From sequence record OZ035759.1: 64,000 nucleotides of DNA. The stretch is one strand, 5' to 3'. Both the position numbers and the translations under genes were made by a program. The DNA is from Mosigvirus mar005p1. The notes under the pieces were generated by a model, which was not told where the DNA came from, did not search any database, and saw only the letters and a list, made by a program, of their open reading frames with translations. Below, one piece after another: positions 5,595 through 33,655 of this stretch. Each line of letters opens with the position of its first letter. Positions within the stretch are counted from its first letter, which is position 1.

Positions 5595-5602
5595 TAAATT
5601 AT

Positions 5603-14481: not shown

Positions 14482-15030
14482 TTAACGAGCCCATTTGATA
14501 ATTTCTGTAATCAAATAATTACGTTCGCTTGCATTAAATCCTATAACTTTGTTAGCACCATCATGATTAAGTAATTGATACGTTTGGATTTCGTTATGAA
14601 TTGCAAACTCTTCAAAATGTGAAATGACTGTATTAAAACCGAATGAAGACAAAGTAATAAGGTCGTCTTCAAAACTTTCAGTCATTTCGTTACGTGTTAA
14701 AATAATTGTGAACACATCATGGTTTTGGCAAAGACGAATATAATCCTGTTCATAAACGTCAAGAACCGAGTCCGCATCTTGTCGAATACGTCCGTAAACC
14801 CAGTTACTAATATATCCACGGTCTAATAGATAAATCTTAGTAGGGTCTAAATAATTCAACATCGTTTCGAAACAGCCAACTTCGTTTCGAGACTTAACAT
14901 CGAAACGCCCATCAACTGTTCGTTTAGGGAAATCAATCTTTACATATCTTTCACTAATTTCCATTATGTCATTAATGAAAGTTGTTTTACCAGCATTATC
15001 CGGGCCATCTACTAAAATAATTTTAGCCAT
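14482..15030 (-). CDS. P-loop nucleotide/nucleoside kinase-like protein (thymidylate-kinase fold)
   Basis: 182 aa; P-loop VDGPDNAGKTT and DRG(Y) motif; not present at this locus in T4. Confidence 0.55.
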   Translation of the reverse strand: MAKIILVDGPDNAGKTTFINDIMEISERYVKIDFPKRTVDGRFDVKSRNEVGCFETMLNYLDPTKIYLLDRGYISNWVYGRIRQDADSVLDVYEQDYIRLCQNHDVFTIILTRNEMTESFEDDLITLSSFGFNTVISHFEEFAIHNEIQTYQLLNHDGANKVIGFNASERNYLITEIIKWAR

Positions 15031-15931: not shown

Positions 15932-16647
15932 TAGTCAAGGAATCCTTTAACATAATCAAAATCACGTTCAAACACATGGGCACTTACCATGGTATGAGTA
16001 TAATCACCAACTTCTACACCACATTCGTTAGCGATATAATGAAGTAATTTTCCTTGGAGATAAAAATCTAACTGCATAACAACAGCACAGTTCTGAGAAC
16101 GCATATGACAGTGGGTATAAAGCTTACCATCACGAATATAATAAGTCACTGAGTCAGTACATGGATATTCAAGCGTTTCGTCCGAATCAAGCAAAGCCTG
16201 ATCAGAACTTTCTAGAATTTGGAACACAACTCTTCGAGAGTTAGGCTTCTCTTTAAGTTCTTTTAGAAGAGCTGGTAATTGGGCCGCAATGCGAGGACCA
16301 TAGAAAGTGTTGAAGTTCGCCGGCAAAACATCTGATTTTGGTTTAGAAATAAATTTAGCGACATTAGGATATGCCTTAAACGCTTCTTCTGCGTTGGTAC
16401 CACCAGAAATCATAAACTTCCAGAAGTCTTCGGCATATTCATAAGAGATGCGGTTAATACGTGGGTCGGTCATTTTGAATGATGATGGAGTGTCAACAAC
16501 TACTGTCATAGACCCAATTTCATTACAACGTCCAATACGAGAATCAGTTACGAATTCCGGGTTTTCTAAAATTTCACGATTGACTGCTTTAAATGCGGCT
16601 TGAAAATCTGCGGCTTTGATATATTTCATTGTGTTATGTTTTCCCAT
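15931..16647 (-). CDS. 42: dCMP hydroxymethylase homologue (thymidylate-synthase fold)
   Basis: 238 aa; position after uvsX; ...CHMRSQNCAVVMQLDFY... resembles the T4 gp42 core as recalled. Confidence 0.7.
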   Translation of the reverse strand: MGKHNTMKYIKAADFQAAFKAVNREILENPEFVTDSRIGRCNEIGSMTVVVDTPSSFKMTDPRINRISYEYAEDFWKFMISGGTNAEEAFKAYPNVAKFISKPKSDVLPANFNTFYGPRIAAQLPALLKELKEKPNSRRVVFQILESSDQALLDSDETLEYPCTDSVTYYIRDGKLYTHCHMRSQNCAVVMQLDFYLQGKLLHYIANECGVEVGDYTHTMVSAHVFERDFDYVKGFLD

Positions 16648-16689: not shown

Positions 16690-16929
16690 TTATTTGAATT
16701 TCTTGGCAATGTTGATATAACGTAAAGCTTCAGCATCGATATTTCCAAGAACACTATGAAGAAATGCATCAGCATAGTATTCCAATTGAACAGGTTCTTT
16801 AATCACTTTAGCCGCTTTAGTTTCAAACAGGCCCATCAGGGCCTTTTTAAGAATTTGTTCGTTGCTGTTAATTTTAATAGTCAAAATCTCTTCATTAAGT
16901 TGGTGGTTAAAAGTTTTTCTAGAAATCAT
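16690..16929 (-). CDS. hypothetical protein
   Basis: 79-aa ORF. Confidence 0.5.
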   Translation of the reverse strand: MISRKTFNHQLNEEILTIKINSNEQILKKALMGLFETKAAKVIKEPVQLEYYADAFLHSVLGNIDAEALRYINIAKKFK

Positions 16930-18086
16930 TCCGGGTACCTCAAAGCGTCATCAGAGTTAGTTATATCAATAATAGATATAGAGTTTTCTGCTAACCCGTT
17001 TTTAGATAATTGACGTTTATAATATCTTTCACAATATGTACACGTCGTCCCGCAGATCTCATTAGCACAATCGAAATCTGGATGTCTGAACCACCTTTTT
17101 TCTAAAAAGCCATCTAACAAAGAGGTTTCAATATTTACTGTATGTGAAAACTCAGTTTCGTTTTCAAGAGTGAAAATAGTCTCTAAAGGCTTCCACAGTT
17201 CTAACAAATTACCTTCAAACTTTTCAGAAGCGTATGCTTCAAGAACTTTCAAAATGTAGTCTGTGCTACCTGTACGTCCTGAAACTTTGAATTGAGTGAT
17301 ACCAATATCATTATAAAGTTTCAAATCTTGAGGACGAACAAAACGAGTTCTCAACCAGTTAAATGGGTCTGTATCACGAGCTTTAATACAGTGTTGCATT
17401 GGATATCCGTTTAAGGATTTAGCATCATCAGCTGTAACATCAGTACTATGGAAAATATAGCAAGAGTCACGATAGCTACAATGTGTTGTATACCCTTTAC
17501 CAGCATTAGAACAGAACTCATTTACAAGAACTTCAAATATTATATTGTTCTTATTGCAAAACTCTGCTGCACGCTTCAGGAAAGAAACTGAACGGTTCTT
17601 ATGAATTCCACAGCAGACCTTTTTGATATTATATTGGTCATGCAAGTATTTGATTTGAGTTACAGCATCGACATGTAGAATTGTTGAAACTTCAATCTCA
17701 ATGTCTTTATTGACTTCACGAACAATTTCCATAACAACAGGGTTAGCGATAGTAATACGCCATACGCCTATTGACCAAAGATACTGAACATAATCCTGAA
17801 TAGCTTTCTTCTTCCACTCAACTAGTTCTCTTTTTGAACCAGGATTTATCGTGTTGAGTGTATAGTTAAAGCAAATACCTAATTCGTTACAACGTTTAAC
17901 GTAATCTTCTAACATCTTTTTGTCAACGTCAGGAAGCCTAAAATCAGGTCTGGCTGCTACAAAAGCCATTTCTCTTGTAGAGCCGTATACTTCATTTATC
18001 AAGCTATTAGGATAAGTTTTATTGAGCTCTACGATTTTATCAAGAAGAGCTAAATCAAAATTCGTTCCGATTTTAAAAGTATTCAT
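16926..18086 (-). CDS. hypothetical Cys-rich protein (possible metal/Fe-S binding), modification-cluster member
   Basis: 386 aa; C-terminal C-x4-C-x3-C-x2-C (CANEICGTTCTYC) plus several other Cys. Confidence 0.55.
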   Translation of the reverse strand: MNTFKIGTNFDLALLDKIVELNKTYPNSLINEVYGSTREMAFVAARPDFRLPDVDKKMLEDYVKRCNELGICFNYTLNTINPGSKRELVEWKKKAIQDYVQYLWSIGVWRITIANPVVMEIVREVNKDIEIEVSTILHVDAVTQIKYLHDQYNIKKVCCGIHKNRSVSFLKRAAEFCNKNNIIFEVLVNEFCSNAGKGYTTHCSYRDSCYIFHSTDVTADDAKSLNGYPMQHCIKARDTDPFNWLRTRFVRPQDLKLYNDIGITQFKVSGRTGSTDYILKVLEAYASEKFEGNLLELWKPLETIFTLENETEFSHTVNIETSLLDGFLEKRWFRHPDFDCANEICGTTCTYCERYYKRQLSKNGLAENSISIIDITNSDDALRYPE

Positions 18087-18147: not shown

Positions 18148-18549
18148 TTATAGATTCGGTTTATACGATTTAAATGTTTCGAATTCGCCTTTATTCATAA
18201 GAGCTTTGAATTCGTCAGGACGCATAGCTTTGTCGTCGATAATCCAATCATATACTGGTTTATGTGTTAGCAAATTATGGTACTTCAATCCAATGTTTGC
18301 TAAGTTCTGAATCAGACTCGGGAGAATGTCAATTGCTATACGACCAGGACCTACTGACTTCATACCGCGAGCAGTGTAAAGCGTTATGGTATGCCCTGCA
18401 TCATACAGGGCATTAATGGCAGACACCATTTCGACGTCCGGCTTGAAGTTCACGTAATCACGATTGTTATTCCACTCTGTTATACAATCATCGACATCAA
18501 AACAAAGATTAAGCATGTTTTCTACACGGCGCATTAGATTCGTTCCCAT
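18148..18549 (-). CDS. HAD-superfamily phosphatase
   Basis: 133 aa; N-terminal DxDx(T) motif FDVDDCIT. Confidence 0.6.
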   Translation of the reverse strand: MGTNLMRRVENMLNLCFDVDDCITEWNNNRDYVNFKPDVEMVSAINALYDAGHTITLYTARGMKSVGPGRIAIDILPSLIQNLANIGLKYHNLLTHKPVYDWIIDDKAMRPDEFKALMNKGEFETFKSYKPNL

Positions 18550-20219
18550 TGATGAGTGATATCGCCACCGATTGGACGATAGGAAACACCAGTTTCTTTA
18601 TCAGTTAGTACCCATTTACCAGGATTTTTTGTAATAAGAGTAGCCGTTACAGGTTCTGCTACGTCATAACTAATAGAGCCGTCCTGAAGTACACGGCCCA
18701 TGTTACGTAATTGCTTAGTCAGAAGTTCCATACCTTTATAATATGCGGCTACCGCTTTAAGTGGATTATTCTTGAAATAACCACCTAATGCAATCCAGAT
18801 AATTGCCACTGCCAAATGATGATACTCGTTAAACGAACTCATCTTTCCATATTTGTAAACTAATGGATTGATGTTAATAGTCACATTACAAGTTGTTTCA
18901 TCAATAGTAAACTGTCCCCAGGTCGGATTAGCGTTGAATTCATCATAACCTGAAACAGCGTAAAGCACTTTAGCTTCATCATACAATTTTGGTCCGTAAA
19001 TCTTGGTTTCACCAAAATATCCACGAGGGTCGATAAACTTGACTTCGCCATTATCAGTAATCATAGTATTACTGAAGTTAGGGTCACCATGAATAACAGA
19101 GTACTGTCCCTGAGAACGGTTATGATAACGAATAAGGTGTTCTAAAGCTTGTTTCAGCATTGGCTTCAGACGTCCAATCTTAGTGTAGTTCACATGTGTG
19201 ATTTTACCAAATGAATCAATCAGCGGTTGAATGCTTTCACAACGATCAATAACTTTCGTATAGAATTCTTTAGTGAAATCACGACGGACAGTTTCAGGAC
19301 TTACAAAATAAGTGTCTGTGCTGAATTTCAGTGCATCTAAAATTGCATCAACAATTTGTGGACGAGCAAGACTTGATTTGGATTTAATATATTCAAATGC
19401 CGGCTTACCTTTAATGCGTTCCATTTCAAAGTTATTTTCATTAACAGAAACTAACTGAGGAACTGAATCTGATTTCACTTTAAGATACCACGAAATCTCA
19501 TCTTTCTGAAGAGCTCGACCCTGTTCGGTTAATGCGAATTTAGTTACAGTTTCTTCGCCAATTTCAACTGCATTAAAACTACGATTAAGTTCACGAACTT
19601 CATGAGCCTTTTCAAGTTTAGGCATATCACCTAAATCAATTAGATTCATAAGCTCTGATTTATTGAATGCGCCACTGTAAAGGAATTCTACGAAATCACG
19701 TCCTTTGCAGTATTCATGAATTTCCTCATCAGTAGAACCCATGTAGAATTCCCAGTCTTTGAACTGATAAATTCCTACAACATTACCGCCTGTTGCACCT
19801 ACATTAGTGATATTTTCACCGTCGAAATTATATCGACATTCGTCACCCTTAACATAGATTGCGTTAACATTCCAAGACCATGAACCAAAATCGGGAATAA
19901 TATCACACCAGTTAACAATTACGTTATGGCCGTCTAAATCTTTGTGTAATTTGGCAAGAGCATAAGCAGAACCATACGCTTCATCAACTGTACGAATAGT
20001 CACATTGAACCCTTCTTGCTCACAATAAGCTCGAACAGTTTCAGCAAATTTTGAATGAACTACTACAATAATTTCATCTGCGCCAAGGTCAGAATAAATT
20101 GTATACAAATTGCTCAGAATAGTGTCTTGTTTATAGTTAACAAGCACCTTAGGAATATGATGCGTTATTGGATACAAACGAGTTGCCAGCCCAGCACCAA
20201 GAATAACAGCTTTTTTCAT
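18534..20219 (-). CDS. bifunctional sugar-1-phosphate nucleotidyltransferase / kinase-like phosphotransferase
   Basis: 561 aa; N-terminal ILGAGLATRL...PK.L (RmlA/GlmU-type NTase); C-terminal VIHGDPNFSNTMI (APH/choline-kinase-like). Confidence 0.65.
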   Translation of the reverse strand: MKKAVILGAGLATRLYPITHHIPKVLVNYKQDTILSNLYTIYSDLGADEIIVVVHSKFAETVRAYCEQEGFNVTIRTVDEAYGSAYALAKLHKDLDGHNVIVNWCDIIPDFGSWSWNVNAIYVKGDECRYNFDGENITNVGATGGNVVGIYQFKDWEFYMGSTDEEIHEYCKGRDFVEFLYSGAFNKSELMNLIDLGDMPKLEKAHEVRELNRSFNAVEIGEETVTKFALTEQGRALQKDEISWYLKVKSDSVPQLVSVNENNFEMERIKGKPAFEYIKSKSSLARPQIVDAILDALKFSTDTYFVSPETVRRDFTKEFYTKVIDRCESIQPLIDSFGKITHVNYTKIGRLKPMLKQALEHLIRYHNRSQGQYSVIHGDPNFSNTMITDNGEVKFIDPRGYFGETKIYGPKLYDEAKVLYAVSGYDEFNANPTWGQFTIDETTCNVTININPLVYKYGKMSSFNEYHHLAVAIIWIALGGYFKNNPLKAVAAYYKGMELLTKQLRNMGRVLQDGSISYDVAEPVTATLITKNPGKWVLTDKETGVSYRPIGGDITHQWERI

Positions 20220-20260: not shown

Positions 20261-20404
20261 CTAGTTAAAGCATTCATACTTTGCTTGTAGTCCAATCATA
20301 ATCCATCCAATTACAAGTGTTGGAATCATTACTGGAGCCGTTAAGCTCCAGTAGATAGTCATGACAAGCATCAATAGTAAAAGTCCTATTGTTATTGCTT
20401 TCAT
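20261..20404 (-). CDS. small hydrophobic peptide (47 aa)
   Basis: ORF below track threshold; ATGA overlap with SIS gene stop; two TM-like segments. Confidence 0.3.
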   Translation of the reverse strand: MKAITIGLLLLMLVMTIYWSLTAPVMIPTLVIGWIMIGLQAKYECFN

Positions 20405-21036
20405 TGTTCGCCTCGTAACATGGCACCTAGTGCACCGCCTGGATGGAACTTAAGGAAATCATTAGAGGTAAATCCACGTTCAGACGAAAGGTTGATAGCG
20501 AACGTATCGATAAGCGCTAACAACAATGTAGTAGACATTGTCGGAGCTAAAGAGTTCTCGTCAACTTCTACCGCGATACCGGTACAGAACGTATAATCAA
20601 AAAGAGCTTCGTATTCTTGTGGAATGTCAGGGTTACAATGTAACAGAATCTGTTTAACCTGAGGACGAATCATACGAAGATGCTTAGCAACACCTATCAT
20701 TTCTTCAGTCTTACCAGAACGACTGATGTGAACTAATACATCATTAGGTGCAATAAATCCTGCGTCGCCATGAGAATAATGCCCAGTGTTCAAGTACATA
20801 CTCGGGATACCGAGTGAAGCAAATGTCTCAGAAGCTTTAGTTGCGATATTAGCGTTCTTACCAACACCTGTAATAATTACACGACTTTCATAATTACTCA
20901 GTCCAGGGCGACGAAGAGTTTCAAGAATAGCATTATATCGGGCCGGGTTTTGACTAATTACTTTAGCCATAGTGGCAAGAGATGAAGCTTGTTTTACGAT
21001 TGCGTCAATAGCGATAGTGATTGGTGTAGTTTTCAT
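20401..21036 (-). CDS. SIS-domain sugar-phosphate isomerase (arabinose-5-P/phosphoheptose isomerase-like)
   Basis: 211 aa; SIS motifs GVGKNANIA...VHISRSGKTEE. Confidence 0.7.
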   Translation of the reverse strand: MKTTPITIAIDAIVKQASSLATMAKVISQNPARYNAILETLRRPGLSNYESRVIITGVGKNANIATKASETFASLGIPSMYLNTGHYSHGDAGFIAPNDVLVHISRSGKTEEMIGVAKHLRMIRPQVKQILLHCNPDIPQEYEALFDYTFCTGIAVEVDENSLAPTMSTTLLLALIDTFAINLSSERGFTSNDFLKFHPGGALGAMLRGEQ

Positions 21037-21076: not shown

Positions 21077-23788
21077 TCAAAAATCAAACATATCGAACAG
21101 AGATGCTTTCTTCTCGTAATCGAGTTTCGCTGCTGATGTGAATCCTTCAAGTGGTTTAATAAATGTCTTCTCAAGGAGAACAGTGTAGTCCATCCAATGA
21201 AGTACGTCGTCTTTAATTAAATCTGTGATTTCAGTACCAGAAGGCCATGCGATACATTTATCACCGAACGGGTTTCCATCACGTAAAGGCAGAACGTATA
21301 CCTTTTCGCCTTCTACAACTTGTGGAGCATCAATATTACCTTTGATAGCTCGGTTATATGTTAGAATTCCACGAATATGGAATGGGCATTTAGGTCCTGG
21401 ATATCCACCTACATCATATTTAGCAATGTTATTCGCAGAAGATACCGACGCGATGCTAATATAATTCAATTGACGGAATTCTTTTTCAAACTCTTTAAAA
21501 TATTCTTGTAATGATTCTTCACCTTCTTGAAGCATACGACGAATACATTCTTTAAGAGCTTTCTGTACTGCTTTAGGGGTCGAAGATTTCTGAGTCTCTA
21601 GACCCATGATTTTGAGTTTAGGCTCAGCGTAACGAGTACCTTCCATATCCCACACGTTTAATGCATAACGTTTCTTACCAGTCCAGAATCCACCAATACC
21701 TTTAGAACCGAGCGGAGGACCAGCGATAGCTTCTCGGTCCATGAACATTAAGTGTTGTTTATTGTTCATGTATTCACACATTTCACGGAAACCTCTATCA
21801 ATAGCAGGTTCCATACGTTCACGTGCAAACTTATCTAAGAAGTCTACCCAATGGTTGGTATCACGGAATTTAGATTCACCAACCTTATCGATAATTTTAT
21901 CGGCGGATACGTAAATAGAGTCTGTATCACCATAAAGAACGAAAGCTTCACCTTCTGTACCACAAACTTCATTCAGATATTCATTAACTTTACGTTCAAT
22001 CCACTGTAAAGCCATTTGCCCGAATGTTGTGATTGCAGTAGCATTACGCAAATCGTAATAACGGAACCATACGTTACCAAGTGCACCATAAAGTGAGTTG
22101 ATAAGCAATTTACGGTTAATTTGGGCAGTCATACCTGCAACTTCAGTACGTTGAGCTCTGAACAACATTTCATTAAGAGATTTAGCAGACAACTTTTTAA
22201 TCTTTTCTTTAATCTCATCACTGAAGTCGAAACGATAATCAACATCTAATGGTTCATCAACAGAAAGATTAGGATTATGCAATGCCTCTTTAATTATTTC
22301 ACCATTACGTTGAGCTGCAAGCATGTAACCTTTATGTTCTTTACGTTGATTAAAGACCTTAGTGATTTCAGTTGGAACTACACCATCACGGTCTTTATAA
22401 TACATCATGCCGTTAGGAGAGCAACTGTACACATCTGAAGGACGTTCAGCGATTGCGTTAATATAATCATGCAGTGGAGCTACTTTAAACGTTCCTGCTA
22501 TTGTTTCTGGGCTAATATTCACTTGGCGAATAATACTTGGATACAGAGATGTGAGGTCGAAGCTCATCACATATTTGTATCGATTTGGAATAGGTTCCTT
22601 AACAAAAGCGCCAGGATAAGGTTGAACCGGATGAGAACGACCTTGTGGAATCACCTTGTTCTGCTCTTTAAGGCTATTAAAAATAATAGCATCCCATGTT
22701 TTAATTGGGCTAAACACAGATTGAATCTGTATCTTAGCATAATAACCCATGTCCAAACTCAAGTTGATGAACTGACGCTTAGCATCAATTTGCAATACAC
22801 GATACACGTCGATAATGTTATAAGAAATATATCGTTGGTGATTGCTTTCACGAAGCTTAGAAATAGGGCCGTCATATTTCAGTTTACCGACGTTCAATTC
22901 AAATTCTGAAATGTAATCCAGAGAATACGACGGTTGATTGGTAAAAGAGAATTTTTTGTAAAGGTCAATGTAATCAAGAACAGAGATACCGAACAATGTA
23001 ATGATTTCACGAGAACCATACATGTTTTCGATAACTTTAACACGAGTTTTACGATGTGGTGATAAACGTTTCGCAGTTGATTCGCCAAAAATATTCTTGA
23101 TTCGGTTATACACATATGGAATATCAAATGACTCAACGTTCCATCCAGTCAAAATGACAGGAGTTTTCTGTTGCCAGAAGTTGAGATATTCCATCAACAA
23201 TTCTTTTTCGTTATCGAACGGCATATAAATGATTTTATCGATAATTTCAGATGGAACTTCATCACCGCCTTGTTCTTGAAGCTTAGCAGCGATTTCAATA
23301 GACCATTCTTCTACATTACCATATGGAGAATTCAATAGATCAAATACGTAGAACCTGTCGTCAATTGAGTCATAATGGGTGATAGCATCAATCGGATGTT
23401 TTGCTTGTGACGGCTCAGGGAACCCATCCGGGGATGTTACTTCGATGTCGAAGTTAGCCACACGAATTTTTGTATGGTCGTATTTGATTTCATAGTTATA
23501 AGTGTCAGACAAATACGCCAATTTGAAATCGTCCATACCTAATGCTTCAAGACCGATATCTTCCATGCGTTTAATCCATTGGGAAGCATCACGCATATTA
23601 GCGAACAACTTACGAGTACACGGCTTACCGTAGATATCGAAATATTTCGTAGCCTGACTTTCTGGACAATGAGCAAACAGTGATGGTTTATATTCTACTT
23701 CACGAGTACGTTCACGGCCATTAGAATCGATGTAACGTTCAAAAATTGAATCACCAATCTGTTCAACCGTTAAGTAAAATTCTTTCAT
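21077..23788 (-). CDS. 43: DNA polymerase gp43 (family B)
   Basis: 903 aa; exo motif FDIEV, pol motifs SLYPS and YGDTDS; sequence matches RB69 gp43 from memory. Confidence 0.97.
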   Translation of the reverse strand: MKEFYLTVEQIGDSIFERYIDSNGRERTREVEYKPSLFAHCPESQATKYFDIYGKPCTRKLFANMRDASQWIKRMEDIGLEALGMDDFKLAYLSDTYNYEIKYDHTKIRVANFDIEVTSPDGFPEPSQAKHPIDAITHYDSIDDRFYVFDLLNSPYGNVEEWSIEIAAKLQEQGGDEVPSEIIDKIIYMPFDNEKELLMEYLNFWQQKTPVILTGWNVESFDIPYVYNRIKNIFGESTAKRLSPHRKTRVKVIENMYGSREIITLFGISVLDYIDLYKKFSFTNQPSYSLDYISEFELNVGKLKYDGPISKLRESNHQRYISYNIIDVYRVLQIDAKRQFINLSLDMGYYAKIQIQSVFSPIKTWDAIIFNSLKEQNKVIPQGRSHPVQPYPGAFVKEPIPNRYKYVMSFDLTSLYPSIIRQVNISPETIAGTFKVAPLHDYINAIAERPSDVYSCSPNGMMYYKDRDGVVPTEITKVFNQRKEHKGYMLAAQRNGEIIKEALHNPNLSVDEPLDVDYRFDFSDEIKEKIKKLSAKSLNEMLFRAQRTEVAGMTAQINRKLLINSLYGALGNVWFRYYDLRNATAITTFGQMALQWIERKVNEYLNEVCGTEGEAFVLYGDTDSIYVSADKIIDKVGESKFRDTNHWVDFLDKFARERMEPAIDRGFREMCEYMNNKQHLMFMDREAIAGPPLGSKGIGGFWTGKKRYALNVWDMEGTRYAEPKLKIMGLETQKSSTPKAVQKALKECIRRMLQEGEESLQEYFKEFEKEFRQLNYISIASVSSANNIAKYDVGGYPGPKCPFHIRGILTYNRAIKGNIDAPQVVEGEKVYVLPLRDGNPFGDKCIAWPSGTEITDLIKDDVLHWMDYTVLLEKTFIKPLEGFTSAAKLDYEKKASLFDMFDF

Positions 23789-23846: not shown

Positions 23847-23866
23847 AATGGGACCGAAGTCCCATT
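23847..23866 (-). promoter_or_regulatory. UUCG-tetraloop RNA hairpin between regA and gene 43 (possible stability or translational-control element)
   Basis: Minus strand AAUGGGAC-UUCG-GUCCCAUU, no U-run; followed by UGGAGUAUAAU and the gene 43 leader. Confidence 0.4.
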
Positions 23867-27001: not shown

Positions 27002-27193
27002 TTATTCGTAGAAGTCGGTAACTGTCCATGCGGAATTGCGATTAGACATTATTTTATTATACTCATCTTTAAAAGCAGATTTGAGCATTTGTTCAGTAAC
27101 AATATGTTCTTCACCTGAAAACGTATTGGTCAAAACATATTTTTTAATTTCAGGGACAACAAGAAGATGTTGTCCGGTTGAATACTCCGCCAT
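27002..27193 (-). CDS. hypothetical protein (45.2 position)
   Basis: 63-aa ORF. Confidence 0.45.
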   Translation of the reverse strand: MAEYSTGQHLLVVPEIKKYVLTNTFSGEEHIVTEQMLKSAFKDEYNKIMSNRNSAWTVTDFYE

Positions 27194-27239
27194 TATAAAT
27201 CTCCATGATTAAAGCAATATAAATAGGTTTATCAATTTA

Positions 27240-27990
27240 TCTGTTGCTGTATCAAATAAGGATTTAGTAAATGAATTATAACTCAATATACGAAAAGCTT
27301 ATCACCAATGCTAAATCAAGAAGTTTAGATGGTTACACAGAACGTCATCACATTATACCACAATGTTTAGGTGGAAGTGATGATGCTTCAAACTTAGTAG
27401 ACTTAACACCAGAAGAACATTATTTGGCACATCAACTGTTGGTAAAAATCTATCCAGATAATGCCTCTTTAATATACGCTGCTCGTATGATGACCATATC
27501 ATCTCCTAAAGCAGATAGAAGCAAAAACAAATTATTTGGATGGCTTCGTCGTAAGAATCAAGAAGTTCAAAAGAACAAAGAATTCACGGCTGAAACCCGT
27601 AAGAAAATGTCCGAGTCTGCAAAAAATAAACCAAAGATTACCTGTCCACATTGTGGTTTAACTGGAACTGAAGGAAACATGCGTCGTTGGCATTTTGATA
27701 ATTGTAAACAAGGTCCAACGCCTAAAATAGTAAAATTATCTGATGATGAAAAACAGAGGATAAGTTCTAAACTTAAAACAATAGAGTGGAAACTCCACAC
27801 ATGTGTACACTGTGGTCTAGAAGGAAAAGCTTGCAATATAGTTCCTCATGAGAAAAACTGCAAACTTAATCCTAATAGAATAAAACCTAATGTAACAATA
27901 GTGGAATGTCCATACTGCTCTAAAAGTGGTTCTATATCAAATATGAAAAGATGGCATTTCGATAATTGTAAATATAAGCCTCATTAAGAG
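27240..27990 (+). mobile_element. free-standing homing-endonuclease gene insertion between 45.2 and 46
   Basis: Only sizeable plus-strand gene in a minus-strand operon; HNH family typical of T-even mob/seg elements. Confidence 0.5.
27271..27987 (+). CDS. HNH homing endonuclease with three C-terminal Cys/His zinc-finger-like repeats
   Basis: 238 aa on opposite strand; HNH motif ERHHIIPQCLGGSDDASNLVDLTPEEH; repeats CPHCG...GNMRRWHFDNCK (x3); converges on gene 46. Confidence 0.8.
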   Translation: MNYNSIYEKLITNAKSRSLDGYTERHHIIPQCLGGSDDASNLVDLTPEEHYLAHQLLVKIYPDNASLIYAARMMTISSPKADRSKNKLFGWLRRKNQEVQKNKEFTAETRKKMSESAKNKPKITCPHCGLTGTEGNMRRWHFDNCKQGPTPKIVKLSDDEKQRISSKLKTIEWKLHTCVHCGLEGKACNIVPHEKNCKLNPNRIKPNVTIVECPYCSKSGSISNMKRWHFDNCKYKPH

Positions 27991-29672
27991 GCTTTCATCA
28001 CAGTAAATCGTCCAACTTTGCTCATTTGAAGATGTTGTCCATAAGCTTGTGGGTCATGGTCTCTGTGACTAATTATAAACACGTTTGCATCGGTTAGAGA
28101 GTTAAGAATTGTTGAAATAGCTTTAATACCTTCAGAATCAGTCGCGGAATCCATGACTTCGTCCATAATTAATGTATTGATTCTAACACCAGAGACCTTT
28201 TCAGCAATATCTCGCCATGTAAACAACAACGCGATATCGATACGTGCCTTTTCACCTTGACTAAATGAAGCATAACTAAAATCTTCACGACCACGTGATT
28301 TTATAGATTCATTGAATTCTTCATCAATAGAAAACACGTAATCAGCTTCCATGATTTTAAGATAATGGTTAATCTGCTTGTTGAACAGAGGCACGTATTT
28401 TTTAATGATAGCACCTTTAATACCAGAATCTTTTAACATATCTGTGATAATACCACGATGATATTTTTCAAGAACGATGTCTGATTTTGTTTTAATGATT
28501 TTATCAAGTTCTTTTTGAAGCAAAGCTATCTCATCGGCATGGTCGATAAACTCCGCCGAGGCTTGTTCTATTGCAGCTTTAACTTTCTTAGCTTTATCAA
28601 TAGTGGCAATCATTGCTTGTTTCTTGGTACGAATATCAGATGCAAGGTCCTGTTTAGTCTTAACATTAGCTCTATATTCGTCCACTAGGACACTCAGATT
28701 ATCTCTGTGACATGTAAGTTGCTCGAATGAGTGATTACATTCATGAAGCTTATCGGTAATCTTAGAGACAATAGGATCACCCTGGTGCAACTGTGATGCA
28801 CAAGTAGGACATGTGCCACCGTCATGATACATCTTAATAACTTTGTTATATGAGTCGATTTTAGATTTAATCAAGAATGCTTCTTGTCCGATCTTGTTGA
28901 ATGCCTCAGTAGGGTCTTCATCAAGAACGATATTAAGTAGTCGCTCATTAGCTTCTTCGATTTCTGCTTTTAATGAACGAGCTTCTTTGGCTAGGTCGTC
29001 ATACATATTCTGTAGACGCGCTACATTATCACCAGATAATTTCTTTTGACGTTCGATATTCTCGTTATAAATCTTAATTTGTTGGATAACACCATCTTTC
29101 TTGGCATCGAGAACTTGCCCTTGGGAATTAAGTTCTCGAACTTGAGACTTATTGATTTTATCCATTTCGGCGAGTGTGCCGACTTCTAAAAGGTCTTCGA
29201 CAAGTTTTCTACGAGCAGGGGTGCTAAGAGCCATGAAAGGGGTATACCCTGCCGTCCCAAGCACAACGATTTGTTTAAAAGACGCGTATGACATTCCGAT
29301 GCTACGTTCAAATTCTTCTTGGAAGTCACGACTGCTGGCAGATTCATCGAGACGAACACCGTCAACGGAGATTTCGAAAATATTGGGCTTTTGGCCACGT
29401 CTAATGAAGTATTTTTTATCATCGAATTCCATCCAAAGCTCAACTAAGAGCTCTTTCTTGTTCGTGCTATTAATGATTTGTCCTTTCTTAACATCACGAA
29501 ATGGTTTACCGAAAAGTCCGAAAGTAATGGCTTCTAACATCGTAGATTTACCACCGCCATTTTTACCAGTGATTAATGTCTTTTGGACTTTATCTAATTG
29601 GATATCAATAGGATTCCCACCTACCGACATGATGTTTTGATAACGAACACGATTTAATTTAAATGATTTCAT
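27984..29672 (-). CDS. 46: Recombination nuclease subunit gp46 (SbcC/Rad50-like ATPase)
   Basis: 562 aa; Walker A GKNGGGKST, coiled-coil middle, signature/Walker B region; T4 gp46 ~560 aa. Confidence 0.9.
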   Translation of the reverse strand: MKSFKLNRVRYQNIMSVGGNPIDIQLDKVQKTLITGKNGGGKSTMLEAITFGLFGKPFRDVKKGQIINSTNKKELLVELWMEFDDKKYFIRRGQKPNIFEISVDGVRLDESASSRDFQEEFERSIGMSYASFKQIVVLGTAGYTPFMALSTPARRKLVEDLLEVGTLAEMDKINKSQVRELNSQGQVLDAKKDGVIQQIKIYNENIERQKKLSGDNVARLQNMYDDLAKEARSLKAEIEEANERLLNIVLDEDPTEAFNKIGQEAFLIKSKIDSYNKVIKMYHDGGTCPTCASQLHQGDPIVSKITDKLHECNHSFEQLTCHRDNLSVLVDEYRANVKTKQDLASDIRTKKQAMIATIDKAKKVKAAIEQASAEFIDHADEIALLQKELDKIIKTKSDIVLEKYHRGIITDMLKDSGIKGAIIKKYVPLFNKQINHYLKIMEADYVFSIDEEFNESIKSRGREDFSYASFSQGEKARIDIALLFTWRDIAEKVSGVRINTLIMDEVMDSATDSEGIKAISTILNSLTDANVFIISHRDHDPQAYGQHLQMSKVGRFTVMKAS

Positions 29673-29923: not shown

Positions 29924-30152
29924 TACACGCTTCAGCCATTTTAAGAATAGAGCCAGGAGTATCGTTGTCCATTATATTAAAGCTAAATTCAATAGCCCAG
30001 TCGGTGCAGACATGAACTGCTTTAACTTCATTGCCTTCAACGCGTAATGGCTCAATCCAATACTTGATAGTGTTCTCGAATCCATCATCATCTTTAACAT
30101 CTATTTCAACTTCAAGCCCGAGCCCAGCATTGTTAAATTCATCTAAAGTCAT
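29895..30152 (-). CDS. hypothetical acidic protein
   Basis: 85-aa ORF. Confidence 0.5.
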   Translation of the reverse strand: MTLDEFNNAGLGLEVEIDVKDDDGFENTIKYWIEPLRVEGNEVKAVHVCTDWAIEFSFNIMDNDTPGSILKMAEACIEDAYNDED

Positions 30153-31168
30153 TGTGTTGCCTCAATATAAAGTTCGTTGGAATATTTGACCAGCGCTTCT
30201 CTGTCTTCGTCTGAGATATCTGGAATCGCGTCAATATATTCTTTAATGATATCTTGAAGTGATTTAATCTCGATTTCCTGGTCGTCATCAGATTCAACAC
30301 TGTTATCAACTTTAGAAACCATACGAAGAGAGTGAACTACTTTTTCAAGTTCAGATTCAAACTTAGTCAACTCTGAATCAATTTCTGATACTATAACACG
30401 TAAGGCTAGATTAGTATAATCAGAATAATTGATTTTGCCTTTAAACGGATAAGTGATTCGTCGATGCCATGTTGTTTCATTAGGAATAAATTCCATACGT
30501 TCAACATCAGTGTCAAATACCCAGAATCCGCGCGGGTCGTTCTCATCGCCTGCAGTAAGGGTCCATGGTGTCCCAATATATTTGACGTTAGCAGCTTCAG
30601 AGATTGTGTGGAAGTGGCCGGACCAGACTTGTTTATAGGTCTTTAAGAAATCAGGTTCAAGCCCATGAGACTTCATTCCTTTATAGAAATAAAAACCATT
30701 CAGTTCCCAGTGCCCAACACAATACGCAGCAGAAGAAGTCTTGATGTGCTCTAAGATTTCACCTGTATTTTCTTCACACATCCATGGAACGATATCAATC
30801 AGACATCCGTCAAAATCTACAGTAGTTGGATGCTCGTAAATAGTAAAGTTTTCAAATTGAGTTAACAATTCAGAAACAGTGTTAGGTGTTATGGTATTCT
30901 TAAACGCCATGTCATGATTTCCTATCGTGACATGAACGTGAATGCCTGCTTTAGAAATCATATCAACGATTTCACGATTGAATTCCATTGTACGATGTGT
31001 TATTGCTTTACGGACGTCAAACCAATCACCGTACTGAATCCAAGTTTTAATCCCGTGTTTCTTAGAGTATTCAATTGCTTGACGAATACCATCACGTTGA
31101 ATATCTTGAACCCATGGGTCGTCTTGTTTGACTCCGATATGGAAGTCGCCTAAGTGCAAAATTTTCAT
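30149..31168 (-). CDS. 47: Recombination nuclease subunit gp47 (SbcD/Mre11-like)
   Basis: 339 aa; phosphoesterase motifs LHLGDFH, GNHD; same length as T4 gp47. Confidence 0.9.
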   Translation of the reverse strand: MKILHLGDFHIGVKQDDPWVQDIQRDGIRQAIEYSKKHGIKTWIQYGDWFDVRKAITHRTMEFNREIVDMISKAGIHVHVTIGNHDMAFKNTITPNTVSELLTQFENFTIYEHPTTVDFDGCLIDIVPWMCEENTGEILEHIKTSSAAYCVGHWELNGFYFYKGMKSHGLEPDFLKTYKQVWSGHFHTISEAANVKYIGTPWTLTAGDENDPRGFWVFDTDVERMEFIPNETTWHRRITYPFKGKINYSDYTNLALRVIVSEIDSELTKFESELEKVVHSLRMVSKVDNSVESDDDQEIEIKSLQDIIKEYIDAIPDISDEDREALVKYSNELYIEATQ

Positions 31169-31210
31169 ATTATTTCCTCATTAGTTAATTCATTCTATCA
31201 TCCGTTTATA

Positions 31211-31239
31211 AAGCAAAAAAGGAACTCCGAAGAGTTCCT
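31211..31239 (-). terminator. Rho-independent terminator (UUCG tetraloop) upstream of gene 47
   Basis: Minus strand AGGAACUC-UUCG-GAGUUCCU followed by UUUUUUGCUUU. Confidence 0.7.
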
Positions 31240-31411
31240 ATCCACATAGTACACCGTACAGAGGCTCATTTGAACTTTTAAATCTAATGGGCTTGTATGT
31301 AATAGTTCCTTCGGCTTTAGCTTTATCATAAGACTCTTTAAAACGTCTCATTCTTTCTGCTTTGCCTTTACGGATTTTATCGAAATTTTCAGAAGTCGGG
31401 ATGTTCGTCAT
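31238..31411 (-). CDS. small hypothetical protein (57 aa)
   Basis: ORF below track threshold; stop codon lies inside the terminator hairpin. Confidence 0.3.
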   Translation of the reverse strand: MTNIPTSENFDKIRKGKAERMRRFKESYDKAKAEGTITYKPIRFKSSNEPLYGVLCG

Positions 31412-31449
31412 GCATAATCACCCCTCAGAAATACCTAAATCGATTTCTC

Positions 31450-31656
31450 TCATCGTTTCCACCATTTCTTAACTTGAAATGAATCAACCCACACGAGTTG
31501 TTTTGGGTCTGCCTTTACAATAGGCGGACAAATTTCTGTAATAGAACCGTCGTGATATTCCTTTTCAGAGATTTTAACACAAAGAGGACCTCCCAATTTA
31601 AGGGTGAACCCTGCGTTCAGCTTCAGACGTTTAAACTTTGTTTGAACTAGCGCCAT
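31450..31656 (-). CDS. hypothetical protein
   Basis: Track ORF 31450..31671, start uncertain. Confidence 0.4.
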   Translation of the reverse strand: MALVQTKFKRLKLNAGFTLKLGGPLCVKISEKEYHDGSITEICPPIVKADPKQLVWVDSFQVKKWWKR

Positions 31657-31954
31657 TAATGATGTCCTCAATAGCTTGACGAGTAGTAACCCACTGGATT
31701 TTAATTAACTTGTCATTATATGGTTGTCGTAGAATATCCCGAGATTTCTTAATAGCATATTCGTAAGCTTCGAAGTTGTTTTGAATTGCTGCTTCTTGAG
31801 CATGTGCATAAAGACGGTTTAGTTCAAAACGATTCTTTTTAAGAATCTTTTCGGATTTTTTACGTGCTTCAGCTTCATTTTTCTTTTGGATTTCTTGTAG
31901 CATTTTAGCTACTGCATCTTCTGCTTCTTTATTTTCAATAATCTCGGTAGTCAT
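31631..31954 (-). CDS. hypothetical protein
   Basis: 107-aa ORF in the slot where T4 carries alpha-glucosyltransferase. Confidence 0.5.
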   Translation of the reverse strand: MTTEIIENKEAEDAVAKMLQEIQKKNEAEARKKSEKILKKNRFELNRLYAHAQEAAIQNNFEAYEYAIKKSRDILRQPYNDKLIKIQWVTTRQAIEDIINGASSNKV

Positions 31955-31955
31955 A

Positions 31956-32171
31956 TTATCTCATTAAATTAAAATAAAAACGTCCATCCTCTTCAATACA
32001 GAACTCGTACTCAACTGGAGTTCCATTTATCGAAAATGACACGTCATGTGGGTTCAAAGGGTCGATGTCAAAATTAATTTTAAATTCTCGACCCAACAGT
32101 TTTACCAAATAAGGGATTGCTTCGTCAAAAGGTTCTTCTAAGTAGTTAGAGATGTCAATTGTCATCCTCAT
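31956..32171 (-). CDS. hypothetical protein
   Basis: Track ORF 31956..32249 trimmed to internal ATG just downstream of the gene 55 stop. Confidence 0.4.
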
Positions 32172-32712
32172 ATAAAAAATCCAAACTAGGCGAATCGCTA
32201 ACAACTTCCTTCTTTTCAGCCCCAGGAGCTTTATAAGCGGATTCTTCATAATGCGTCATTTTATCGTAGATGTCTTGAATAAACGTTTCATCTACCAACG
32301 CTACCATATCATCGTCATGACTGTCGTAGACATTATGAACGAAGTAACTATATTTCTTTGCAACTTCCTTACGTTCTTTTTTGATACGTTGGACAAAAGC
32401 ATTAAAACAAGCTCGAGTTATGTATGCATGTGGGTTATTGTACTTAGTTTCGTCGAAATTATGAAGTCCCTTAATAGAGGCTTCAATCCCATCTGCAATC
32501 ATCTCCTGCTTCCAAGACTGGGTATATCCTGAAAAGTTGAAACGTTTGGACAGGCCTTCGGCGATAAGCATAATTGCTAAACCGATGGTATCATTCTGAC
32601 GAATAATTTTGTTTGGGTCTTTATTATTTAAGAGCTCCTTTTTCCACTCGATTATAGCGGCGAGAAGCTCTTTATTATTCACATAGTTATTTTTAGGTTT
32701 TTGTTCAGTCAT
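32155..32712 (-). CDS. 55: Late-transcription sigma factor gp55
   Basis: 185 aa from ATG; near-colinear with T4 gp55 (NYVNNKELL...[25 protein letters not shown]...). Confidence 0.88.
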
Positions 32713-32784
32713 AAGTACCTCTTGGCTCAATTCATAGGTCTATTATATCATAATATTTAGAGACCTATCTTAAAGCACGAGATA

Positions 32785-33054
32785 CTATCGGAGCAAACAA
32801 TAAGCCTGAAACACTTTTTCCATTAAACGTTTGAACTCATGGATATCGATATAAAGCTCAGTAAGACCGGCATTATAAAGAAAATCTAAAAAGTTCTCAT
32901 GTGTTTCGTTATAGTCGCCTTCGTTTAATTGAGATACATGAGTTTCCCAAAAACCAACACCTTTAACGAATGGAAAATACGTGACTTTCATGTATTCGTC
33001 AACATAAAATTCGCCCAGCTTTTCTTCAGTTATACTGATTCGAGTTAATTTCAT
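32785..33054 (-). CDS. hypothetical protein
   Basis: 89-aa ORF. Confidence 0.5.
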   Translation of the reverse strand: MKLTRISITEEKLGEFYVDEYMKVTYFPFVKGVGFWETHVSQLNEGDYNETHENFLDFLYNAGLTELYIDIHEFKRLMEKVFQAYCLLR

Positions 33055-33278
33055 TCTAGTTCCTTTGCTGCTTCAAGAGCAGCATCCAGCGAATCAAATT
33101 GGTCAACGAAATCAATATTCAACGCATCGTCAACCGTAGCATATAACCACCATTGTTTGAATTCGTATTCTAGAATAAATCCAGGACCTTCAATCTGAGG
33201 AAGACCTAGGCTATTTGTACCAACTTCGTAACCAGCTAGACGCAGGTCATTAATCAAAGTTTCTGTTAATACGCTCAT
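33051..33278 (-). CDS. hypothetical acidic protein
   Basis: 75-aa ORF, overlapping start/stop. Confidence 0.5.
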   Translation of the reverse strand: MSVLTETLINDLRLAGYEVGTNSLGLPQIEGPGFILEYEFKQWWLYATVDDALNIDFVDQFDSLDAALEAAKELE

Positions 33279-33655
33279 TTTGCCGCCTTAACAATTTTCA
33301 GATCAACGAATTTTTTCTTACGTTGATTTTTCATACGACGGATAGTCTTTTCAGAGATTTCATGTTTCTGATAAGCTTTAGATTCAACACCAAATGCAGC
33401 AACGTCAAATTCAGAAAGAATATATTGTACTAGAATTTCACGAATAGAATTGCGTCCAATTTTCTGGTCGTGTTTTTGCATAATTTCATAAAGACGGAAT
33501 TCCCACGCGTCAAGAACTTGAGGAGTAACAATATTGCCAGATTCCAGAAGAGCAACAACTTTATCGAAAGCGAAAGAATTAACTACGTTTTTGATTTTAG
33601 TAGACATATTATTTTCCTCGGTTATTTTATTATCCAACGAGAGAATTATACTCAT
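33275..33655 (-). CDS. hypothetical protein
   Basis: 126-aa ORF. Confidence 0.5.
   Translation of the reverse strand: MSIILSLDNKITEENNMSTKIKNVVNSFAFDKVVALLESGNIVTPQVLDAWEFRLYEIMQKHDQKIGRNSIREILVQYILSEFDVAAFGVESKAYQKHEISEKTIRRMKNQRKKKFVDLKIVKAAK

Follow-up and report, generated by a model that had tools for sequence, protein, structure and literature searches.

Introduction

The closest described counterpart of the gene cluster considered here is the arabinosyl-5-hydroxycytosine system of phage RB69 and of Acinetobacter phage DLP3 (Lee et al., NAR 2026; Thomas et al. 2018; Mahler et al. 2025). In RB69 DNA, mono- and di-arabinosyl-5-hydroxycytosine have been found chemically (PMC13326640), sugar analysis has identified arabinose and not glucose (PMC6024577; PMC13326640), and the 5-hydroxy-dCMP synthase activity of RB69 gp48 has been proven experimentally (PMC13326640); like the phage described below, RB69 is devoid of glucosyltransferase genes (PMC2993671, PMC6024577), and a deletion of aat in the related phage Bas46 is mentioned in PMC13216743. 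That this group has no glucosyltransferase genes was pointed out in 2010; arabinose followed in 2018, and 5-hydroxycytosine together with its pathway in 2025-2026. The absence of glucosylation and the presence of a replacement system in this phage group are, in other words, already published and not new. A second concept relevant to the locus is that of the PeSL/PmSL cassettes of T4-type phages (PMC2839356 and PMC4122927).

In T4, the interval between genes 47 and 55 contains 47.1, a-gt (400 aa, the alpha-glucosyltransferase), mobB and then a-gt.2 to a-gt.5. Whether a T-even phage can be attacked by a given restriction system, DNA glycosylase or CRISPR system depends on the sugar carried by its cytosines, and so does its ability to recombine with relatives; telling the RB69 (arabinosylating) from the T4 (glucosylating) type by sequence is therefore practically useful, with applications in phage therapy, phage engineering and DNA handling.

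Phage Identity and Gene Layout of the 47–55 Interval

The window, that is, the whole 64-kb stretch of DNA that was analysed, is Mosigvirus DNA: phages moha and Bas46 match the region at 99.1% identity, 25 kb are 96.5-98% identical to several Mosigvirus genomes, and the source phage is an RB69-like (Mosigvirus) member of the T-even phages. Every gene of the 47–55 interval lies on the minus strand. The downstream boundary is gene 47 (30149-31168, minus strand), encoding an SbcD/Mre11-like nuclease subunit with 76% identity to T4 gp47 over all 339 aa and a Pfam Metallophos match, and the upstream boundary is gene 55 (32155-32712, minus strand), annotated as gp55, a late sigma factor with 91% identity to T4 gp55; between them the order, starting from 55, is a-gt.5, a-gt.4, a-gt.3, a-gt.2, and a hairpin followed by a MotA-type middle promoter. 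The first-pass annotation had described this interval as holding four small ORFs (57-107 aa) and a UUCG hairpin, with nothing the size of a glycosyltransferase, a description borne out by the ORF calls and by a terminator scan; indeed, the largest ORF between 47 and 55 measures 107 aa, and there is no room for an ORF of 300-400 aa.

In alignments against T4 and RB69, as proposed in the same annotation, the boundary genes and the four small genes prove orthologous, and the RB69 layout is identical. With respect to T4, the four small genes are alike in order and orientation; T4, however, has about 2.3 kb more (47.1, the alpha-glucosyltransferase gene and the homing endonuclease gene mobB) as well as a second hairpin/promoter module, neither of which is found in the window. 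Relative to T4 the interval lacks no genes other than 47.1, a-gt and mobB, and the block which these three form in T4 sits exactly at the a-gt.2/47 junction. RB69, Bas46/ChristianSchoenbein, moha and vB_Eco_mar005P1 share the gene order of the window, with proteins that are 95-100% identical; in RB69/Mosigvirus the spacer carrying the hairpin and promoter is alike almost base for base, and the interval differs by point changes only. Elsewhere, an extra mobB-like HNH gene (27271-27987) distinguishes the window from its RB69/Mosigvirus relatives, and single intact ORFs are present where the RB69 record splits some of them.

The Four Small Genes

The a-gt.2 orthologue (31238-31411, minus strand; 57 aa, DUF5486) is 76% identical to T4 a-gt.2 (E = 8e-28) and 95% to its RB69 counterpart, matches Pfam PF17588 at E = 4.5e-28 and has a dN/dS of 0.25 against T4. 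The a-gt.3 orthologue (31450-31656, minus strand; 68 aa, or 73 aa from an upstream TTG) belongs to phrog_1648 (PHROG E = 1.6e-34), with 71% identity to T4 a-gt.3 (E = 3e-33), 100% to RB69 and a dN/dS of 0.10. Upstream lie the a-gt.4 orthologue (31631-31954, minus strand; 107 aa, DUF2654), 58% identical to T4 a-gt.4 (E = 1e-36; Pfam PF10849, E = 1e-27), and the a-gt.5 orthologue (31956-32171, minus strand; 71 aa, or 69 aa from a start at 32165; DUF5491), whose start overlaps the end of gene 55 and which is 47% identical to T4 a-gt.5 (E = 6e-17) and 100% to RB69 (Pfam PF17595, E = 5.8e-13). Membership in the a-gt.2 to a-gt.5 families is supported by Pfam/PHROG E-values of about 1e-13 to 1e-37, by blastp against T4 (47-76% identity, E 6e-17 to 1e-36) and by a synteny alike in T4 and RB69. 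The profile search suggested in the first-pass annotation returned matches to DUF5486, phrog_1648, DUF2654 and DUF5491, and pN is far below pS for the four ORFs compared with their T4 orthologues (dN/dS 0.10-0.25 where computable); because of these family matches and substitution patterns, the four ORFs are real genes under purifying selection and not chance ORFs.

The idea that these ORFs are occupants which took over the a-gt slot does not stand, since T4 carries the same four genes in the same interval: a-gt.2 to a-gt.5 are ordinary conserved early/middle genes that T4 also has, with no demonstrable tie to DNA modification. Against Pfam and PHROGs the small ORFs matched only DUF or uncharacterised families, and against PADLOC and NCBIfam they had no match; the PHROG label "head maturation protease" attached to a-gt.2 was taken as a mislabel, the match spanning 34 aa of a 62-position profile. 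The most widespread of the four is a-gt.4, present in 1442 phage records, conserved throughout Straboviridae and, near-universal as it is, always located between gene 55 and the Mre11/Rad50-like genes 47/46. Its AF2 model (pLDDT 90.8) is all-alpha, with four helices; Foldseek against PDB gave no analogue (best E = 2.3), the search against BFVD returned its own family only, and the sequence compared with PDB produced only noise (E > 1).

The Hairpin and Promoter-like Module

Downstream of a-gt.2, on the minus strand, the RNA would form a hairpin (31220-31239), AGGAACUC-UUCG-GAGUUCCU, followed by a U-run (31215-31219); its 8-bp stem, UUCG loop and five to six U residues are by sequence those of an intrinsic terminator. 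The element was detected by terminator scan and folding, its 5' arm includes the a-gt.2 stop codon, and a near-identical GenBank record (MH243438) annotates the site as "terminator". The hairpin is the dominant fold of the 66-nt intergenic RNA, the whole 66-nt stretch folding only modestly better than its shuffles (z = -1.5); the sequence of the stem varies with pairing kept in six other phages, and the UUCG loop too is kept in T4, RB27, Mineola, CC31 and DLP3. An Rfam scan of positions 30000-33500 (E <= 1) gave no match, and a terminator-like match on the plus strand (31507-31529), antisense inside a-gt.3, was judged to be due to chance.

The hairpin is followed by a middle-promoter-like element (31192-31217, minus strand), composed of a MotA box, TTTGCTTTA (31217-31209), an 11-nt spacer and the -10 hexamer TAGAAT (31197-31192), with the gene 47 ribosome-binding site GAGGA at 31178-31174; TTTGCTTTA agrees with the T4 MotA-box consensus of the literature. 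The same layout of MotA box and -10 hexamer occurs upstream of 47 or 47.1 in RB69, T4, RB27, Mineola, CC31 and TG1. From this arrangement we infer a role of the module as terminator and middle promoter, which would end the a-gt.2 transcript and restart transcription for genes 47 and 46. The layout is that of the PmSL/PeSL elements, a stem-loop and then a MotA box of TGCTT type and a -10 hexamer, next to a set of genes that varies between phages; the module may be one of the short repeated cassettes at which T4-type phages gain or lose genes.

Genomes without a-gt have a single hairpin/MotA-box module, whereas in T4, RB27 and Mineola two modules flank a-gt. Apart from the UUCG loop, the left and right modules of T4 have only about 8 nt in common (GCTTTATA), and a repeat search around T4 a-gt/mobB found no long direct repeats at the module positions, so that a "flanking repeat" exists at the level of motifs only; with shared sequence this short, the flanking pattern could simply follow from the general build of early/middle units, each of which opens with a promoter and closes with a hairpin. 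A crossover in GCTTTATA would agree with what is seen at the junction, but the shared stretch, of only about 8 nt plus the loop, was not picked up by the repeat search.

Absence of Glucosyltransferases and the Arabinosylation Cluster

No glucosyltransferase homologue is detectable by sequence. With tblastn over the whole 64-kb window, the best E was 1.3 for T4 a-gt and 4.8 for T4 b-gt; in the rest of Bas46, the closest complete genome, the best match of T4 a-gt (E = 0.078 over 69 aa) is spurious. At a threshold of E < 0.1, b-gt and the T2-type ba-gt of RB27 had no match in either the window or the remainder of Bas46, and Mineola a-gt found nothing in the same sequences. The earlier claim that bgt is missing is thereby upheld by tblastn for both the window and the rest of Bas46, and a glucosyltransferase homologue outside the window, which the first-pass annotation had named as contrary evidence, was looked for in the rest of Bas46 and none was found. 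This way of putting the question is too blunt, because this genome type does encode transferases with the GT-B fold that a-gt and b-gt have, the first within the window and the second about 6 kb upstream of it. Likewise, an empty a-gt site alone is insufficient to conclude that there is no glucosylation, given that CC31 lacks a-gt at this site and is yet reported to carry b-gt and ba-gt (PMC2993671).

The replacement cluster is located between uvsX and gene 43. The slot between uvsX and 42, which is the b-gt/ba-gt site, holds a kinase gene and the gene for a 299-aa protein with no sequence kinship to b-gt or ba-gt. The former (14482-15030, minus strand), adjoining uvsX where T4 has segA and b-gt, encodes a nucleotide (thymidylate-type) kinase with 98.9% identity to RB69 gp45 (role as proposed in PMC13326640, Table 1); the latter (15032-15931, minus strand), in the T4 b-gt position and adjoining the gene 42 homologue, encodes a GT-B-fold glycosyltransferase, the putative first DNA arabinosyltransferase, with 98-99% identity to RB69 ORF047c plus ORF046c. 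The gene 42 position (15931-16647, minus strand) is taken by a predicted ThyA-like 5-hydroxy-dCMP synthase, not a hydroxymethylase (Pfam Thymidylat_synt), 98.7% identical to RB69 gp48 and only 25% to T4 gp42, and it is by this identity to gp48 that the synthase is recognised as standing in place of the dCMP hydroxymethylase. Further along, on the same strand, lie the genes for a putative sugar-phosphate phosphatase of the arabinose pathway (18148-18549; 98% identity to RB69 gp51; role as proposed in PMC13326640, Table 1), for a bifunctional nucleotidyltransferase and kinase proposed to make NDP-arabinose (18534-20219; Pfam NTP_transferase and weak kinase-family matches; 98-99.7% identity to RB69 ORF053c plus ORF052c, gp52:53) and for a SIS-domain arabinose-5-phosphate isomerase (20401-21036; Pfam SIS; 96.7% identity to RB69 gp55). 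The set expected to supply NDP-arabinose (arabinose-5-phosphate isomerase, phosphatase, kinase plus nucleotidyltransferase) is accordingly present, at about 97-99.7% identity to RB69.

By sequence, the 299-aa protein has no match in Pfam, NCBIfam or a phmmer search of PDB, its GT-B fold being revealed by structure prediction only: the AF2 model (pLDDT 95.2, pTM 0.90) gave 114 Foldseek matches against PDB at E <= 1e-3, all 50 of the matches listed belong to the GT-B superfamily, and the TM-score to MshA (3c4q) is 0.61. The model and the Foldseek matches identify a candidate DNA arabinosyltransferase of GT-B fold, the sugar itself not being readable from the fold. The second transferase, of RB69 ORF003c type, is not in the window; in Bas46 it lies at 72047-73147, about 6 kb upstream of the window start, and in this nearest complete genome it adjoins rIIA. 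The GT-B transferases of this genome type would be arabinosyltransferases, not glucosyltransferases, an assignment that is putative, and the modified base of this phage is probably not hmC.

Taken together, these data support, at the level of gene content, a phage that does not glucosylate its DNA and possesses another modification system. The corresponding claim of the first-pass annotation survives as regards the missing glucosyltransferase homologues and the presence of an arabinose cluster. The exchange is at the b-gt/42 locus; nothing was exchanged in the 47–55 interval.

Interpretation

The reading that we favour, with a probability of about 0.9, is that this Mosigvirus lacks both the a-gt block and glucosylation and arabinosylates instead, that the small genes are conserved and shared with T4, and that the module is a terminator followed by a promoter. 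What was observed here is the gene content and orthology, the motif layout, the GT-B fold and the fact that glucosyltransferase homologues are missing. In the proposed pathway, the ThyA-like enzyme encoded in the gene 42 position would make 5-hydroxy-dCMP, phage enzymes encoded between 42 and 43 would build the NDP-arabinose donor from ribulose-5-phosphate, and GT-B-fold transferases would then attach one or two arabinoses to 5-hydroxycytosine, one of them encoded in T4's b-gt position, in the window, and the other next to rIIA, just outside it in the nearest complete genome. The DNA chemistry and the 5-hydroxy-dCMP synthase activity are carried over by analogy from the literature on proteins that are 97-100% identical.

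That the cytosines might be free of sugar (plain C, hmC or 5-hydroxycytosine), there being no glucosyltransferases and nothing in their place, was left open for RB69 in 2010 (PMC2993671) and would agree with the lack of any Pfam/NCBIfam glycosyltransferase domain by sequence in the window; we consider it very improbable in view of the intact arabinose-nucleotide pathway, of the confidently modelled GT-B transferase and of proteins about 97-100% identical to those of RB69, whose DNA holds arabinosylated 5-hydroxycytosine (PMC13326640; PMC6024577). No more credence is due to a divergent glucosyltransferase at 15032-15931, with DNA that is still glucosylated: the 299-aa protein does share the GT-B fold of T4 a-gt and b-gt, its best structural matches use UDP-sugars and the fold does not reveal sugar specificity, but it has no sequence similarity to a-gt, b-gt or ba-gt, its cluster neighbours make arabinose-5-phosphate and an NDP-sugar, and the sugar of RB69 DNA is arabinose, not glucose (PMC6024577; PMC13326640). 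A functional substitution of a-gt by at least one of the small ORFs, in DNA modification or anti-restriction, has as its sole support their position in the "a-gt" interval and is given practically no weight: T4 has all four alongside a-gt, they are found in phages with glucosyl, arabinosyl and other DNA chemistries, 57-107 aa is too small for a nucleotide-sugar transferase fold (a-gt.4 being a four-helix protein), and no PADLOC, NCBIfam or PDB match exists for any of them.

The history of a-gt is a separate matter. Between 55 and 47, CC31, TG1, Matisse and DLP3 have no a-gt, a gene that is present at this site in Tequatrovirus and Jiaodavirus, with 66% identity; the a-gt-free interval is the common state across Straboviridae. 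A Mosigvirus ancestor may have had a-gt at the a-gt.2/47 junction and lost it, once arabinosylation had made it useless, by recombination between flanking modules. This would fit the two hairpin/MotA modules that bracket a-gt in T4, RB27 and Mineola, the sharing of a-gt at one site, at 66% identity, by two genera of Tevenvirinae (Tequatrovirus and Jiaodavirus), and the composition of the window module, whose 5' half resembles the left copy of T4 (GGATAG-hairpin-TGCTTTATAAA) and whose 3' half resembles the right one (CGGA...TGATA-AATGA), such chimeric halves being the pattern that a crossover within GCTTTATA would leave. An insertion of the cassette at the module in T4, however, should give the same pattern; since the module is single and a-gt missing at this site in CC31, TG1, Matisse and DLP3 alike, and the TG1 promoter region is nearly identical to that of the window, the a-gt-free state is more parsimonious as the ancestral one. 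We infer the direction from these comparisons, and regard loss as unlikely, if still worth keeping in mind. A more speculative proposal, which we hold to be doubtful, is that the a-gt.2/47 junction is a cassette-insertion site, a-gt with or without a homing endonuclease moving as a unit by recombination between module copies, and that, separately, a-gt.4 is an accessory factor, so far undescribed, that acts in late transcription or in the control of the recombination nuclease; if the former is true, T-even phages would exchange DNA-modification genes by means of the hairpin/MotA module.

Comparison with Known Systems

As in the PeSL/PmSL cassettes of T4-type phages (Arbiol et al. 2010; Comeau et al. 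2014), a stem-loop terminator stands in the window directly before a MotA-type middle promoter, at the edge of a gene block that some relatives carry and others lack; unlike in those papers, where the module of the a-gt locus is not described and a-gt is unmentioned, the copies share only short identity, and recombination at the module is presumed. With regard to DNA modification, the window represents a further member of a known group and introduces no new principle. Compared to the RB69 system, the ORF003c-type second transferase lies outside the window, and the chemistry, known for RB69, is read here from the genes; the whole uvsX-to-43 set of RB69, from the nucleotide kinase, the GT-B transferase and the 5-hydroxy-dCMP synthase to the U32-like protein, the phosphatase, the kinase/nucleotidyltransferase and the arabinose-5-phosphate isomerase, is found in the window at about 97-100% identity.

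Gene content of the interval between genes 47 and 55

The interval bounded downstream by gene 47 (an SbcD/Mre11-like nuclease subunit, 30149-31168) and upstream by gene 55 (the late sigma factor, 32155-32712), in a region where all genes lie on the minus strand, contains the orthologues of four small T4 genes, each of which matched a family in a profile search: a-gt.2 (31238-31411, 57 aa, DUF5486; 76% identity to T4, E = 8e-28, and 95% to RB69), a-gt.3 (31450-31656, 68 aa, phrog_1648; 71%, E = 3e-33, and 100%), a-gt.4 (31631-31954, 107 aa, DUF2654; 58%, E = 1e-36, and 100%) and a-gt.5 (31956-32171, 71 aa, DUF5491; 47%, E = 6e-17, and 100%). As reported in the first-pass annotation, the slot of the T4 alpha-glucosyltransferase gene (a-gt) is thus occupied by four ORFs of 57-107 aa only; on the ORF reading of the interval, none of glycosyltransferase size fits between genes 47 and 55. 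The layout is exactly that of RB69, the type member, where a-gt.2, a-gt.3, a-gt.4 and a-gt.5 are annotated between 47 and 55; the T4 record lists 47.1, a-gt, mobB, a-gt.2, a-gt.3, a-gt.4 and a-gt.5, so that the sole difference in gene content is the absence here of a block of about 2.3 kb comprising 47.1, a-gt and mobB. With Escherichia phages moha and ChristianSchoenbein (Bas46, the closest complete genome; its counterpart of the window spans about 78.9-142.2 kb) the interval region shares 99.1% identity, and with many further Mosigvirus genomes about 98.9%; a 25-kb stretch of the window shows 96.5-98% identity to the same group.

Compared with T4, pN is far below pS in the four ORFs, dN/dS being 0.10-0.25 where synonymous sites are unsaturated, a pattern similar to that of genes 47 and 55; these values indicate genuine genes under purifying selection. 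The most conserved is a-gt.4, which tblastn detected in 1442 phage records (Acinetobacter, Vibrio and Aeromonas phages among them) and which is located across Straboviridae always between genes 55 and 47; it is modelled with confidence as a four-helix protein (pLDDT 90.8), its invariant residues being E44, R47, L48, Y66, K70 and R72, and searches with the model gave family members alone in BFVD and no PDB structure analogous to it. PADLOC and NCBIfam searches gave no match for any of the four genes, nor did an Rfam scan of the interval region. Besides its own family, a-gt.2 matched phrog_17354 ("head maturation protease"); this match, covering 34 residues in a profile of 62 positions, was discarded as probably a mislabelled PHROG offering no functional clue. 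Since the four genes are found alongside cytosine chemistries of every kind, our best guess is that they encode small early or middle accessory proteins unrelated to DNA modification.

Elsewhere in the window, between 45.2 and gene 46, a 238-aa ORF (27271-27987) lies on the opposite, plus strand, its first 131 aa being 44% identical to the HNH homing endonuclease MobB of T4 (tblastn E = 3e-23); the 806-bp segment carrying it (about 27189-27994) has no counterpart in RB69 or in Bas46, the latter having 67 bp at this place, and looks like the insertion of a free-standing homing endonuclease.

Glucosyltransferases and the arabinosylation cluster

The first-pass annotation concluded that the phage does not glucosylate its DNA and has exchanged its modification system. 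The former conclusion holds: T4 a-gt and b-gt (the beta-glucosyltransferase gene) have no tblastn match in the 64-kb window, which contains an arabinosylation cluster, and a homologue elsewhere in the genome, sought in Bas46 outside the window equivalent with T4 a-gt, T4 b-gt, the T2-type ba-gt (beta-glucosyl-HMC-alpha-glucosyltransferase gene) of RB27 and a Klebsiella-phage a-gt, was not found, the sole alignment (E = 0.078) being judged spurious. RB69 likewise carries no glucosyltransferase genes (PMC2993671; PMC6024577). In the phage collection, 657 records contain a-gt homologues; among the matches listed, those of T4-like coliphages show at least 90% identity and those of Klebsiella/Raoultella phages about 66%, the one carrier inspected in the latter group, Mineola, being a Jiaodavirus. 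As to the exchange, the system has indeed been replaced, but at the b-gt/42 locus of the same window and not in the a-gt interval.

Between uvsX and gene 43, where T4 carries segA, b-gt, 42, imm and imm.1, the window (uvsX, 13211-14383; gene 43, 21077-23788) encodes a 182-aa kinase-like protein (14482-15030; without a Pfam domain, the assignment coming from its 98.9% identity to RB69 gp45, of thymidylate-kinase type), a 299-aa protein (15032-15931; no Pfam domain), a 238-aa thymidylate-synthase-like protein (15931-16647; Pfam), a 386-aa U32-peptidase-like protein (16926-18086; Pfam; 99.5% identical to RB69 gp50), a 133-aa protein (18148-18549; no Pfam domain), a 561-aa nucleotidyltransferase with weak kinase-family matches (18534-20219; Pfam) and a 211-aa SIS-domain isomerase (20401-21036; Pfam). 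Identity of the cluster proteins to RB69 gp45-gp55 is 97-100%. The published pathway firmly assigns no step to the U32-peptidase-like gene lying inside the cluster. The 299- and 561-aa proteins are single intact ORFs, each split in the RB69 record (ORF046c/047c and ORF052c/053c), in agreement with the published statement that the former split is a sequencing error and with the treatment of ORF52/53 in the literature as one protein.

RB69 DNA bears arabinose in place of glucose (Thomas et al. 2018, PMC6024577), the base being mono- and di-arabosylated 5-hydroxycytosine (Lee et al., NAR 2026, PMC13326640); in the latter work, the thymidylate-synthase homologue gp48 was shown in vivo, by 18O2 labelling, to form 5-hydroxy-dCMP, the remaining cluster genes were predicted to supply UDP-arabinose, and gp46:47 and gp3 were the predicted arabinosyltransferases. 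An arabinosyltransferase deletion in Bas46 is attributed to Mahler et al. 2025 by a paper citing it. The modified base in the present phage is probably arabinosyl-5-hydroxycytosine and not a variant of glucosyl-hmC.

The 299-aa protein has no match in sequence searches of Pfam, NCBIfam and the PDB; its AlphaFold2 model (78 aligned homologues; pLDDT 95.2, pTM 0.90) gave 114 PDB matches in Foldseek (E <= 1e-3), of which the 50 listed are all members of the GT-B superfamily, including MshA (TM 0.61), HepE, PimB' and UDP-GlcNAc 2-epimerases. The model thus points to a glycosyltransferase of the a-gt/b-gt fold class, not a sequence homologue, at the T4 b-gt position. A second transferase of the RB69 ORF003c type was not found in the window; in Bas46 it adjoins rIIA, about 6 kb before the window start.

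The hairpin and putative promoter module, and the history of a-gt

The UUCG hairpin noted earlier in the interval as a terminator was recovered by a terminator scan and coincides with a terminator annotated in a near-identical GenBank record. The 69-nt spacer from the 57-aa ORF to gene 47 reads, in the sense direction, (stop)-AGGAACUC-UUCG-GAGUUCCU-UUUUU-GCUUUA-UAAACGGAUGA-UAGAAU-...-GAGGA-...-AUG; the hairpin dominates the predicted fold, the whole 66-nt stretch having only a modestly more stable fold than shuffled sequences (z = -1.5). The hairpin with its U-run leads directly into a MotA box, TTTGCTTTA (31217-31209), and after an 11-nt spacer there is a -10 hexamer, TAGAAT (31197-31192), an arrangement which by consensus resembles a T4 middle promoter and would serve genes 47 and 46; the Bas46 annotation includes genes for MotA and AsiA. 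Just after the -10 hexamer, at the start position of T4 47.1 (46 aa), a sense ATG (31189-31191) opens a mini-ORF of two codons, with AAT TAA after the ATG; ATGAATTAA is shared with TG1, and 47.1 was either never present here or truncated.

The junction was compared across eight other phages. Upstream of gene 47 (or 47.1), RB69, T4, RB27 and CC31 share a UUCG hairpin with GCTTT(A/C) and a -10 hexamer after it. The layout recurs in Mineola, where the box reads GCTATT; TG1 shares the promoter and differs in the loop, DLP3 keeps the UUCG hairpin and has an early-type promoter, and Matisse has a GAAA-loop hairpin with no recognisable MotA box. The stems vary with pairing kept, which supports a functional RNA structure. 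Elsewhere on the minus (coding) strand, UUCG hairpins with 8-9-bp stems lie at 11400-11421, 5574-5595 and 23847-23866, the first two directly followed by early-promoter-like GTTTAC...TATGAT or TAAGAT (two PeSL-like modules in the window); if stems down to 5 bp are counted, the minus strand has eight, whereas about 3.4 would be expected for the two strands combined.

The interval from 55 to 47 lacks a-gt in CC31 (Karamvirus), TG1 (Tegunavirus), Matisse (Slopekvirus) and DLP3 (Lazarusvirus, of a different subfamily), so that the a-gt-free state is common and probably ancestral and a-gt itself probably a lineage-restricted insertion; its secondary loss in Mosigvirus is, against this distribution, rather unlikely. 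In all three a-gt carriers examined (T4, RB27 and Mineola) the gap between a-gt.2 and a-gt holds a second module copy, placed before mobB in T4, so that a-gt is bracketed by two copies. The 5' half of the single module in the window resembles the left T4 copy, and its 3' half the right one. Recombination at the a-gt.2/47 module is only inferred, because the sequence shared by the copies is short and was not reported by a repeat search. An empty a-gt site is in itself no proof of absent glucosylation, since CC31 has no a-gt there but reportedly carries both b-gt and ba-gt (PMC2993671); what makes the first-pass conclusion right is the further evidence from the uvsX-to-43 cluster.

Comparison with known systems

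The earlier interpretation is supported, with the refinements that the small ORFs are conserved T4-type neighbours, that the exchange lies at b-gt/42 and that the base is probably arabinosylated 5-hydroxycytosine. Publications on RB69 and Bas46-type phages already cover both gene content and modification chemistry; mildly new are only the unexplained ubiquity of a-gt.4 and the hairpin/MotA-promoter modules bracketing a-gt, whose layout at the junction matches the PeSL/PmSL concept of terminator-promoter cassettes mediating modular gene gain and loss (Arbiol et al. 2010, Comeau et al. 2014; PMC2839356, PMC4122927).
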